Below, one piece after another: positions 38,419-43,450 of a stretch of DNA of 64,000 nucleotides. Below the pieces are notes generated by a model. The model worked only from the letters and a program-made list of their open reading frames with translations. It did no database searches and was not told the origin of the DNA. Source of the stretch: a bacterium (GTDB taxonomy: Bacteria; Zhuqueibacterota; Zhuqueibacteria; Residuimicrobiales; Krinioviventaceae); the NCBI GenBank assembly GCA_963693055.1, contig OY843751.1, forward strand, positions 4,864,001-4,928,000. Reading direction: 5' to 3'. Every line of letters begins with the position of its first letter. Positions within the stretch are counted from its first letter, which is position 1. The translations under genes were made by a program, and so were the position numbers.

Positions 38419-38532
38419 TGATCTGTTTGTTAAACATAGACATTCCCGACTAAATAATCAAGATTTATTAAACCGGAACAGGAAATGCGTGGGAAAAGAT
38501 GATGGATGGCAATTGTATATCAAAGCCCTAAA

Positions 38533-38550
38533 ACAAAACGCAAAGAACGC
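38533..38550 (+). repeat. Direct repeat, left copy (ACAAAACGCAAAGAACGC)
   Basis: 17/18 identical to 43041-43058; the two copies bracket the TIR/SLOG-patatin/Ivy region. Confidence 0.45.
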
Positions 38551-38639
38551 AATATCAGATCGTAATTTTGTAGTAAGGTAAGGGTGAAGTTGAGTTTGAC
38601 AGTGGATTTGGATTTTCACTTAAAAGATTAAATGGATTA

Positions 38640-39533
38640 TTAAAAATTACTATTATTTTTATCAACACATTTTAAAAGCTTCTTACGCCTCATCTCCATC
38701 TTCTTCTTCAATTGCTTAGTCAAAATACTACCGATTAAAGGAATTTTCGATAATCTTTTCCATACAATTGAAGCTGGTAAATCGGTAATAATTGTTGGAT
38801 GACCAGGTGAAATCTTATCAGCTTCTTTAAAATAAAAAATTGATTTTTCAAAATTCATAATTCTAAAATAGTAAATACCTAAATGGAAATTAGTTAAAAA
38901 GTCATCACTTCTTTTTGTTTTGATCTGTAATAAACATTTTATTGCATTTTCATAATCGCCGAGCGAACCCCATATATCCGACTTAATTTGTAACACACGA
39001 ATGTCATCACACAGTTCGTCATAATTCAACAAATTTAATGCATCGCTAAAATTGCCATTATCATAAAAACGTCTAGCTTTTGTTACTATATGGTTCAAAT
39101 TAACTACTTTTGAAACTTTATTGAATATTACAGACGCAACATTTTCAATATTTTCTGTAGAAACTTTCAAATAACTAACGGTTGGCAAAAGTCCAGGTAA
39201 ATCTGATTCATCAATACGCAATGGGATAATGTAATCCGAATCAGGTTCTTCTAATGCTCTTGCTTGTGCTGCTCGCCATTCATGAAGTGTCCATCTCTTT
39301 TCCTTATATGATTGAGAAATCAATATTATACAATAACTAGCCTTATTCATATATATATCGATTAAATATTCAGTTAAATTCTTCCCGAGAAGCTTTGCCT
39401 GCTCATAATCATCATAGAAAACACTTAAACCATGATTGATATAAAGTTTTTTAGCTAATAAGTGTGCTATTTCCCTATCTTCACCTGCAAATGAAATTGC
39501 GATATCATACTCGATCAATATTATTTCCTTCAT
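38640..39533 (-). CDS. TIR domain protein with C-terminal TPR repeats
   Basis: YDIAISFAGEDR, VFYDD, IILISQSY, WTLHEW (catalytic Glu position), IIPLRID; TPR-like GDYENAIKCL, FHLGIYYF...FEKSIFYFKEADKISP. Confidence 0.88.
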   Translation of the reverse strand: MKEIILIEYDIAISFAGEDREIAHLLAKKLYINHGLSVFYDDYEQAKLLGKNLTEYLIDIYMNKASYCIILISQSYKEKRWTLHEWRAAQARALEEPDSDYIIPLRIDESDLPGLLPTVSYLKVSTENIENVASVIFNKVSKVVNLNHIVTKARRFYDNGNFSDALNLLNYDELCDDIRVLQIKSDIWGSLGDYENAIKCLLQIKTKRSDDFLTNFHLGIYYFRIMNFEKSIFYFKEADKISPGHPTIITDLPASIVWKRLSKIPLIGSILTKQLKKKMEMRRKKLLKCVDKNNSNF

Positions 39534-39586
39534 TGAATTTCACAGCGCTTATCTCAACCAACAAAACCAAAATTTTTAAAAAAAAA

Positions 39587-41281
39587 TTATTTATATCTAT
39601 CCCATGGAATTGCTGTCACTCCATTAAGGAATCTAGATTTGATTTGCCCAAGAATATTAACATCAGACGCAACATGCTGACCAAGATCCGCAAGCTCATG
39701 AATTTCAGCAGGTGAATCGAGACGATAAGTATTAGGCATTGTTATTGTATTAACTCTTAGAAAACGAGGCTCTCCCAACAACAGCTTGGTTTGTTTCAGC
39801 GATGATTCTTGTTGAACATTCATCAACAAGTTGAGTATCTTTTTTTCTCGTAACCAACCAGTTATTCCAGAATCAATTTGGTTTCTAACAGTAAAAGGTT
39901 CGTCAGTTGTTCCAACACTCAAAACATCAATCCTTTCAAGTGGGATTCGAAGAAAACAAACTGATTCAATCACAGCAGCTAAAGCTGGAGAATTCGCCCA
40001 AACTCCTCCATCGAAAAACCTGCTTTCCGTGAGCATATTTGAAATTTTAGCAGCTGTAAAATATGTCGGTGCAGCTGCTGTAGCAAGAGCAATATGGGCA
40101 ACTTCAGTATTTGCATCTAAAGTTAATTCAGGATGATGTGGAGTACGAAAAAGGTGTGAAGCTCCAGCAATGGCATGGTAAGTTGGTATTACCAATCGAC
40201 AACATGAATCTTTCATCCTTTTTTTTACACCACTAAAATAATATGCAGATTCTAATTCTTTCAATAATACTGATTGAGCAAATTTGGGTCTATATAAATG
40301 TTTGGTCTTATGCCTTAGTCTACCCAATAATCGAGTCAAAGGGAAAATAATAGGACCTTTATTTATATAAAAATCAAGAATTTGCTTGGCAGACAATCCA
40401 ATTCCTAAACCAATTGCGAGAATCCCTCCTGTTGAAGTACCAGCGATTAGATCAAAATGATCTGTAATACGTAATCCAGTTTGATTTTCCCAAGTTGCAA
40501 GAGCAGCAGCACTAAATGCCCCCTTTAAACCACCACCATCAAGAGCCAATATTCTAAATGAAACACCTTCTGAGCCACTTCCTCGAACCAAGGGCAATCT
40601 CTCGAGTTGTGAGCAAACCTTTTTAGTTATACTCTCGACATCTGTAAGTATAGAGATTTGACGATTTGTATCAATATCAAAACCATTTTTGAGATAGTTA
40701 AATATATTAGGATTATTTTGAATTAAATCATGTGCAGCTCCACCAAGTCCACCCAGCAAGAAACATGGCAATCCTTTTTCAATCGCATAATTGAGTTCTT
40801 TCGGGATTCCTGCTTTCTCTGCTAATGAAAACCACCATTTACCACCTACAACAACAATAACATCACATCTAGCCACCATCCATTCTCTAAGTAATTCTAA
40901 ACTAACTTCTCGAGCGTTTTCTCCTTTTGCTTCAGGTGTTTCATATACTACAGCATACTTTCTCCATTCAGCAATAGGAACAACTCCTGTATCCTTCGAC
41001 CATAAACGTGAAACTGCAAGAACTAAAGCATCTTTACGTCCACCTTTCTTCTGGTAAGATCTTGACTCTTCTAAAAGAATTGGTGTAAAACTTGGATGAC
41101 TTCCATGAATGATGTGCCCTCCATGCTCAAATACATATCGAGATATAAAACGAACAAAATCCACAATTGTTTTTCTCTCTAAATCAGTAGAGTTCTGCTC
41201 CTCAGGAATAGAACCTGACAACCAGATGCGTGCACCTGATAGAGATTTATAATGATGAACGCCATCTTTTTCATCAGGCAT
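39587..41281 (-). CDS. SLOG domain-patatin-like phospholipase fusion (putative defence effector)
   Basis: N-terminal about 230 aa SLOG-like (IWLSGSIP, IIHGSHP, SLELLREWMVARCDVIVVVGG, GIPKELNYA, LLGGLGGAA); C-terminal patatin with DGGGLKG, GTSTG and DGG motifs. Confidence 0.88.
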   Translation of the reverse strand: MPDEKDGVHHYKSLSGARIWLSGSIPEEQNSTDLERKTIVDFVRFISRYVFEHGGHIIHGSHPSFTPILLEESRSYQKKGGRKDALVLAVSRLWSKDTGVVPIAEWRKYAVVYETPEAKGENAREVSLELLREWMVARCDVIVVVGGKWWFSLAEKAGIPKELNYAIEKGLPCFLLGGLGGAAHDLIQNNPNIFNYLKNGFDIDTNRQISILTDVESITKKVCSQLERLPLVRGSGSEGVSFRILALDGGGLKGAFSAAALATWENQTGLRITDHFDLIAGTSTGGILAIGLGIGLSAKQILDFYINKGPIIFPLTRLLGRLRHKTKHLYRPKFAQSVLLKELESAYYFSGVKKRMKDSCCRLVIPTYHAIAGASHLFRTPHHPELTLDANTEVAHIALATAAAPTYFTAAKISNMLTESRFFDGGVWANSPALAAVIESVCFLRIPLERIDVLSVGTTDEPFTVRNQIDSGITGWLREKKILNLLMNVQQESSLKQTKLLLGEPRFLRVNTITMPNTYRLDSPAEIHELADLGQHVASDVNILGQIKSRFLNGVTAIPWDRYK

Positions 41282-41768
41282 ATTTACCCCTTATCTCAAT
41301 TGCCTTCTCAACCCAATCTTCAAGATTCTTTTTTATATAATCATAAACATAGGTACTTGTTGAATAGGGAGGATTATATGATTTCACAATATTTGCCATA
41401 TTTTCACCATCAACTGTGTATGCAGAAAAGGGATTGCTTCCCATTGATGATTGATTTTCATCCCTATCTTTCAAATTGTGGATGTAAATCCCAAGTAATC
41501 CTTTTCCCTCTTCCCATGCTCTCTTAATTTCATATTTAATCCATTTTCTTCCCGCAGTTTTTGAACCGATTAAGACAATAACAACAGATTTACCTTTAAG
41601 CTGTTCATTTATCCATTTCTCTATGTCACCATCTCCCCCCTTCTTAATTGTCTCCCAATCATTATCCGAAACAGGTTTGTTACCTTCTATAACGCCCATA
41701 TTTCTAACTTGAGATGCCCGCCAATTATCGGGGATATAATGAAAACTATAAAACGCTTTTCGTGCCAT
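41274..41768 (-). CDS. thsB: ThsB-like TIR protein (DUF1863/MTH538 type)
   Basis: GGAG RBS then MARKAFYSFHY, WRASQVRN, VVIVLIGSKTAGRKWIKYEI (catalytic Glu), GLLGIYIH, WVEKA; stop overlaps next start by 8 bp. Confidence 0.88.
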   Translation of the reverse strand: MARKAFYSFHYIPDNWRASQVRNMGVIEGNKPVSDNDWETIKKGGDGDIEKWINEQLKGKSVVIVLIGSKTAGRKWIKYEIKRAWEEGKGLLGIYIHNLKDRDENQSSMGSNPFSAYTVDGENMANIVKSYNPPYSTSTYVYDYIKKNLEDWVEKAIEIRGKYA

Positions 41769-42057
41769 TATTTTCTCCAAATAATAATTTAATTTATTAA
41801 TTTTAAAAGCAGAAACCCTCAAAGCTTGTAAACTATATATTTAGAAAGCTAAAAGTTTTATATTAGTTATAGCATAAAGCACTTAATATAAGATTTAAAA
41901 TCTTAATAATAATATTAGTCCACCCAAGAATCCCCAAATCATTTTCTATTTACAACTATAATAAACTAATCATTAACAAACAAATCAAGAGAATTTTAAA
42001 TCTTATACAAATTTAATCCTATATTCCTTTAAATCCCATAAATCTTAATTCAGACAA

Positions 42058-43155: not shown

Positions 43156-43450
43156 AATCCTGGGCATCATTGAATCCTTTAATCATGGTTCAGATCGTGA
43201 CGGAGTTAAGCGTCAGCGGTCTCCGTCACGGGAAACCTTTTTTCTTGAGTGATCCATACTTGCAAAATAATAAACATCTTGCACAACGGAGATCACTACG
43301 TTTATCTCCGTTGCGATCATTTCTTTTTGATAGTGGTAAAGTTAATCTCCAGCGGTCTCCGTCACGGGAATCATGTAATCTTGTTCATCCTTCAATCTTG
43401 GTTATAATCCTCTACTCTAATCCTTTCAATCATGGTTTTAATCAAGGTTT
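43156..43450. repeat. REP-like hairpin cluster
   Basis: GATC-CGTGACGGAG...CTCCGTCACG hairpin (43193-43230), inverted related copy (43284-43318), 21-bp repeat CAGCGGTCTCCGTCACGGGAA (43214, 43350), several AATCC/AATCATGGTT units. Confidence 0.7.

Follow-up and report, generated by a model that had tools for sequence, protein, structure and literature searches.

The window (the whole stretch of 64,000 nucleotides that was analysed) carries a cassette of three genes, all on the minus strand, in which a gene encoding a SLOG-patatin fusion protein lies in the middle, with a thsB-like TIR gene upstream and a TIR-TPR gene downstream. The features, in window coordinates, are as follows.

38508..42013, no strand: variable chromosomal site holding the three-gene cassette (from comparison with the congeners G001 and G004)
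41274..41768, minus strand: thsB-like stand-alone TIR gene, 164 aa from the ATG at 41768, with Glu80 in WIKYE; predicted signal synthase
39587..41281, minus strand: SLOG-patatin fusion gene, 564 aa (from the ORF, Pfam/NCBIfam and an AlphaFold2 model)
40592..41242, minus strand: SLOG domain of LD_cluster2 type, residues ~14-230, with putative pocket residues G23, P63, R132, K148, G158 and E162
40562..40606, minus strand: junction residues 226-240, putative sensor-lipase coupling element (from column identity)
39590..40561, minus strand: CapV-like patatin, residues 241-564, with oxyanion DGGG, nucleophile Ser283 and catalytic Asp424
38640..39533, minus strand: TIR-TPR gene, 297 aa, with Glu85 in WTLHE; accessory TIR (from Pfam)

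The GC content of the cassette is 34.9%, compared with 39.4% for the genome. Its flanks aligned with those of congener G001 at 86-92% identity up to 38507 and from 42014; at the site itself G001 carries unrelated cargo composed of repeats and a Y1 transposase, and in congener G004 the site is empty. The location of the cassette is accessory and defence-like. A REP-like repeat near 43189 (window 43189-43375) had 7 matches in the source genome and is amplified around the Y1 transposase at the corresponding site of G001 (L119:6365-9151). A promoter scan stayed at chance level (19 found, 18.1 expected) and showed no terminator.

The stop of the thsB-like gene overlaps the start of the SLOG-patatin gene by 8 bp, an arrangement also seen in close homologues (e.g., L007-L010 and L016), and a GGAG lies upstream of the TIR ATG. 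The thsB-like product was matched by Pfam ThsB_TIR (E 1e-26) and PADLOC ThsB (E 1.6e-74). Its best solved relative was PDB 8wcf (E 4.9e-44), which we take to be the E. coli partner of EcThsA, followed by BcThsB (6lhy, E 1.9e-19). The TIR-TPR product was matched by Pfam TIR_2 (E 1.9e-17), with weak TPR matches and a weak match to BtTir/AbTir chains. It was considered as a core component and rejected, as 0 of 86 loci were matched using BLASTP (E<=1e-4).

All 12 motifs named in a preliminary description of the locus were located in the 564-aa ORF. Those of the SLOG half are LSGS (residues 21-24), HGSHP (59-63), SLxxLRxxM (127-135), VVVGG (143-147), GIxxE (158-162), and LGGLGGAA (176-183); after RGSGSEG (233-239) come those of the patatin half, namely RILALDGGGLKG (243-254), FDLIAGTSTGG (276-286), ATAAAPTYF (400-408), DGGVWANSP (424-432), and VLSVGT (453-458). 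Three Pfam models exceeded their cut-offs: Patatin (E 9.6e-23, residues 245-436) and, in the SLOG half, LD_cluster2 (PF18163; E 6.9e-13, 49.2 bits against a gathering cut-off of 25.3) and STALD (E 4.7e-07). The NCBIfam model CBASS_lipase (NF041079) scored 243 bits against a cut-off of 200, the NCBIfam model for ThcA of type III Thoeris matched residues 19-193 below its cut-off (E 9e-9, 35.2 bits, cut-off 110), and PADLOC returned a phospholipase model only. The full-length fusion was present in 13 of 243 matching plasmid records, and 11 of these 13 are named ‘CBASS cGAMP-activated phospholipase’; the expectation that automated annotation would call the protein a CBASS lipase was thus correct, but the SLOG domain is not missed, being detected by Pfam. 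A chance or read-through fusion was ruled out, since both Pfam domains are present in 119 of the 120 best homologues listed. A SLOG domain and an intact CapV-like patatin are contained in one 564-aa protein.

The AlphaFold2 model, built from 44 homologues, had a pLDDT of 75.3 and a pTM of 0.79. Comparison of both halves with ThsA and CapV, as had been proposed in the preliminary description, bore out its assignment of an N-terminal SLOG fold and an intact patatin. Residues 17-230 matched the EcThsA SLOG with Z 16.6 (rmsd 2.7, 183 aligned), residues 13-231 matched the SLOG of the BcThsA-3'cADPR complex with Z 16.0, and residues 239-564 matched CapV-type lipases with Z 29-30. Overall, the SLOG half gave Z 15-17 against ThsA sensors and Z 12-13 against LOG enzymes. 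The oxyanion GGG, Ser283 of the GxSxG motif, and Asp424 of the DGG motif do not vary in any of the 63 fused sequences. When the SLOG was modelled by itself from a single sequence, the result was poor (pLDDT 60), and the alignment-based model was therefore relied on for the SLOG fold; in a wide fold search with the poor model, flavoprotein decarboxylases (Z 11.2) tied with ThsA (Z 10.5-10.6). The most hydrophobic segment of the protein overlaps the nucleophile region, so no transmembrane helix needs to be invoked. RGSGSEG had been regarded as a linker; the motif is present, but it does not belong to a loose segment, since residues 226-240 are more conserved than both domains (mean column identity 0.89 versus 0.75 and 0.83 in 44 homologues).

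A search with a SLOG profile yielded 398 long proteins among 7996 candidates, and a patatin was present in all 120 listed. Among the 61 genomes searched, the full-length match was restricted to the source genome, with patatin-only partial matches in four others. Fusion homologues occurred in 4 of 5426 E. coli genomes (an E. coli homologue, WP_001395489.1, has TIR genes next to it), and phage-borne copies were absent from 50,697 phage records. A STALD search of 167 genomes of the phylum gave 0 matches and also missed the SLOG-patatin gene itself. A branch with 99/99 support separates the fused patatins from 8 stand-alone relatives, all sequences having been chosen by similarity to the query.

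A ThsB-type TIR gene lies within 2 kb of the fusion gene in 72 of 86 loci, or 52 of 64 after removal of near-duplicates. Among the non-redundant loci that are flanked by 1 kb or more on each side, the count was 33 of 37, and in 31 of these 37 the TIR gene is adjacent and on the same strand. The four remaining loci comprise a patatin-only copy (L001), a truncated copy (L006), L044, and L085, the last of which has ThcB4-like and ThcA-like genes in place of the ThsB-type TIR. Short ThsB-like TIRs of 124-127 aa occur beside the main ThsB at L007:2680-3054 and in nine similar loci, and a stand-alone LD_cluster2 SLOG (~270 aa) adjoins a distant ThcB4-like TIR in the fusion loci L005:90-1978 and L042:4005-6037. 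Two rare architectures, each known from a single sequence that could be an assembly or gene-calling artefact, are a ThsB TIR fused to a SLOG without a patatin (P0133, 382 aa) and a response-regulator receiver joined to the full SLOG-patatin (P0103, 696 aa).

Seven CD-NTase queries, taken from the stand-alone relatives, gave no match in 90 fusion loci or in the source genome; the same queries matched each other's loci at ~22% identity. SMODS was unmatched in the 100%-complete source genome (the control matched in 3 of 14), and a PF21654 search of that genome was uninformative, its control being unmatched. When 133 of the 188 neighbours selected and 4 extra proteins were scanned with Pfam, many TIRs and no cyclase family were found. 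The cyclase negative covers seven queries and one informative Pfam model within a diverse group, the CD-NTases, that includes further clades. A nucleotidyltransferase gene adjoins 7 of the 8 stand-alone relatives inspected; the eighth, which has a TIR gene downstream, starts at the end of its record. On Gloeothece plasmid NC_011732.1 (L106:114-4024), the stand-alone patatin closest to the query (44% identity) precedes 5-hmdU kinase-like, MazG-like, and TIR genes, and the stretch shown contains no cyclase. The proposal of a Thoeris-type rather than a CBASS context agrees with these results, the fusion being TIR-linked and a CD-NTase not being detected by these searches. The family is systematically mis-annotated, its members being named cGAMP-activated lipases with no cyclase detected nearby.

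A CBASS-type E2 gene, identified by PADLOC E2 (E 1e-33) and tblastn, is located just upstream of the SLOG-patatin gene in nine loci (L003:5615-6931, L004, L005, L068, and L074-L078), and in L012 and L051 an E2 gene is on the opposite strand. In the E2 loci inspected, the E2 gene comes after a ThsB whose extended tail terminates in NPPKPW, and several E2 loci have an HTH and IrrE-type peptidase pair upstream. The arrangement resembles an E2-only CBASS chassis in which a TIR takes the place of the cyclase. Extended ThsB tails of the NPPKPW type are presumably linked to E2-only CBASS cyclases. The C-terminal KPW tail of some TIRs is not mentioned in PMC11153139.

According to PMC12480259, AbCapV binds cGAMP through F147, K149, D159, E207, and R279; an adenine is recognised by K149 and E207, and the formation of filaments activates the lipase. 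K149, D159, and E207 correspond to R379, D389, and E439 of the SLOG-patatin; of 63 fused sequences, 57, 58, and 63, respectively, have kept these residues. The F147 position is aliphatic in fused and stand-alone patatins alike, and the R279 position falls outside the alignments. Given this retention, the ancestral CapV pocket is not clearly dead and may still work in the fused proteins, and the earlier suggestion that cyclic dinucleotides no longer control activation is not supported for most members; the three residues may also be structural. The K149 and/or D159 equivalents are lost in 7 of 62 fused homologues (both in 3), and SLOG motifs are intact in the three checked. At the K149 and D159 positions, Val and Phe/Tyr are found in the members from E. 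coli, Pantoea, and Cupriavidus, which nevertheless retain the SLOG motifs. Since two cGAMP-pocket residues are lost and the SLOG motifs kept, the comparison favours control through the SLOG, at least in the enterobacterial/Cupriavidus branch.

The SLOG domain is 18-19% identical to that of ThsA, and when profiles were compared it did not match three ThsA SLOGs significantly (probability 0.6%, E 0.098). The match with the ThcA profile was far stronger (probability 95%, E 2.4e-8), and a G-x-H-P motif is common to SLOG-patatin and type III ThcA. The SLOG had been described as divergent from ThsA, which is accurate with the qualification that it is closer to ThcA. According to bioRxiv 10.1101/2022.05.07.491051, the contacts of BcThsA with 3'cADPR are G289, S290, R371, K388, G399, and E403; L326 and Q359 stack on the adenine, and the backbone amide of L326 reads the adenosine 2'-OH, which accounts for the preference for 3'cADPR over 2'cADPR. 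These positions were transferred using one ThsA sequence and an HMM alignment to SeThsA, and the correspondences are valid at the level of motifs only. On this motif-level mapping, G289, R371, G399, and E403 correspond to G23, R132, G158, and E162 (kept in 61, 62, 62, and 62 of 62), S290 to S24 (Ser in 25 of 62, Ala in the other 37), K388 to K148 (kept in only 36 of 62), and L326 to P63, which is Pro in all 62 fused homologues; Q359 had no counterpart mapped with confidence.

Judged from these alignments, the SLOG probably keeps the phosphate and ribose contacts of ThsA, and the adenosine-side Leu appears to be replaced by an invariant Pro, as in ThcA. The 3'-selective contact would be lost, because the proline at P63 has no backbone amide hydrogen. 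The Leu-to-Pro change makes it plausible that the ligand differs from that of ThsA, as had been suggested. The TIR side marks no separate signal, since in a quick tree five ThsBs from type I loci are dispersed among those of the patatin loci. This interleaving is not decisive on the ligand either way, because TIR clusters mix effector types (main text of bioRxiv 10.64898/2025.12.03.692087). Among the candidate ligands, 3'cADPR and an undescribed product are credited equally, each with odds well below even, and another known isomer, 2'cADPR or cADPR, ranks just behind them.

The SLOG-patatin shares with type I Thoeris a ThsB-type TIR partner (48-54% identical to three ThsA-adjacent ThsBs), a SLOG fold for which ThsA is the best structural match among SLOG proteins, and, on the motif-level mapping, the equivalents of ThsA G289, R371, G399, and E403. 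It differs in that ThsA is a SIR2 NADase effector with a C-terminal SLOG, whereas the SLOG-patatin is a lipase without SIR2 and its SLOG, of LD_cluster2 type, is N-terminal; PADLOC ThsA models did not match it at E<=0.1. With type III Thoeris it has in common the G-x-H-P and SLxxL/MRxxM motifs of ThcA and a SLOG nearer to ThcA than to type I ThsA, but ThcA is a stand-alone SLOG of ~190 aa without a lipase. ThcB4 was not matched by any of the three cassette genes using NCBIfam, and the window has no ThcB4. Its gene co-occurs with that of ThcA in 7 of 90 fusion loci. On E. coli plasmid NZ_CP034659.1 (L094:5427-12101), the fusion gene is Tn7-like cargo among five TIR genes and a thcA gene; there, as in L095, L096, and L031, it is embedded with type III thcB4 and thcA. 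In such loci the fusion protein may serve as an optional effector of the lipase type, responding to the same signal as type III Thoeris. Signalling in type III Thoeris is called uncharacterised in the main text of bioRxiv 10.64898/2025.12.03.692087. CapV/CapE lipases (8zr9, 9kh6, and 9iom) share with the SLOG-patatin the fold (Z 24-30), the Ser-Asp dyad, the FxTPH motif, and most cGAMP-pocket residues; CapV consists of one domain and has no sensor domain (PMC12480259), and it is CD-NTase-adjacent, whereas the SLOG-patatin has a fused SLOG and is TIR-adjacent.

The SLOG-patatin is outside type I Thoeris (no SIR2), type III Thoeris (below cut-off), and CBASS (no CD-NTase detected in 90 loci or the source genome). 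Features of Thoeris in the broad sense are present, namely a ThsB-type TIR with a Glu at the catalytic position in the operon and an effector with predicted sensor and toxic modules. Full-text literature searches combining SLOG and patatin or phospholipase with Thoeris or TIR did not find the fusion described or tested. The Pfam description of PF18163, as we understand it, links LD_cluster2 SLOGs to patatin lipases, and SLOG cluster 2 was reportedly linked to patatin lipases by Burroughs et al. in 2015. The pairing has probably been predicted bioinformatically before. In the main text of Yirmiya et al. (bioRxiv 10.64898/2025.12.03.692087), phospholipases are among 29 putative Thoeris effector types; these are predictions. 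None of the verified types named in the same main text is a SLOG-patatin, the type IX effector being unnamed there and that of type XI termed only a hydrolase, and the word ‘patatin’ is absent from it.

The reading we favour, with a probability of roughly 0.7, is that the SLOG-patatin is a Thoeris-type suicide effector in which a TIR-made signal of the ADPR type would bind the SLOG and switch on membrane lysis. This reading is based on the two folds, on catalytic residues that are intact and a pocket that is conserved, on the ThsB linkage, on the failure of the searches to detect a CD-NTase, and on the accessory location. By analogy with type I Thoeris, phage infection would be sensed by ThsB, which would convert NAD into a cyclic-ADPR-type signal. 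Binding of this signal in the SLOG pocket would cause a change, probably in oligomer or filament as in ThsA and CapV, that would be relayed via the conserved junction residues 226-240 and open the lipid pocket of the lipase. Membrane lipids would then be hydrolysed and the infected cell would die (abortive infection).

A rival explanation, which we consider unlikely, places nucleotide binding in the retained CapV-type pocket of the patatin and leaves the SLOG as a second input or as a LOG-like enzyme by which the TIR product is processed or broken down. The conservation of R379, D389, and E439 fits this explanation, as does the adenine read by AbCapV K149 and E207 (PMC12480259), a base also carried by TIR products; some SLOG domains are enzymes and others sensors, and catalytic SLOG clades exist, according to PMC9503650. 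Against it stand the homologues that have lost the K149/D159 equivalents and, in the three checked, kept the SLOG motifs, and the modelled fold is nearer to ThsA sensors than to LOG enzymes. An alternative to which we give a little less credence still is activation by direct TIR contact or by bulk products of NAD breakdown, e.g., ADPR, with the SLOG serving as an adaptor. The closeness of the SLOG to ThcA, given the status of type III signalling noted above, and the one ThsB-SLOG fusion (P0133) would be compatible with this alternative; the partner TIRs, however, are diverse and exchangeable, which is more in keeping with a small-molecule link than with a fixed interface, and the diphosphate and ribose contacts are invariant in the SLOG.

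That the protein is a true CBASS lipase activated by cGAMP, with the CD-NTase acting in trans and the SLOG and TIR present as bystanders of a defence island, is highly improbable. The NF041079 score above cut-off, the mostly kept cGAMP-pocket residues, and the CBASS-type E2 genes of some loci speak for this explanation, but it is opposed by the failure to detect a CD-NTase in 90 loci and the source genome, and by the 8-bp overlap of thsB with the SLOG-patatin start, which recurs in close homologues. A broader proposal, possible but doubtful, is that the G-x-H-P SLOGs of SLOG-patatin and ThcA read an undescribed TIR messenger. The family would then be a reporter for the missing type III Thoeris signal and would exemplify a CBASS lipase chassis, in some cases accompanied by E2 and regulator genes, in which TIR signalling has replaced control by cyclic dinucleotides.

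On the sequence and model comparisons made here, the SLOG-patatin is a real, widespread, and mis-annotated fusion and probably a Thoeris-type effector, apparently new to experiment. If the Thoeris-type reading is true, a membrane-lysing lipase would be added to the verified Thoeris effectors, and it would follow that the killing module of CBASS can come under a TIR-signal sensor by fusion. ThcA has no assayable enzyme domain; in the SLOG-patatin a ThcA-like SLOG is fused to an easily assayed esterase, which would make the question of type III signalling testable, and the E. coli homologues make such testing straightforward.
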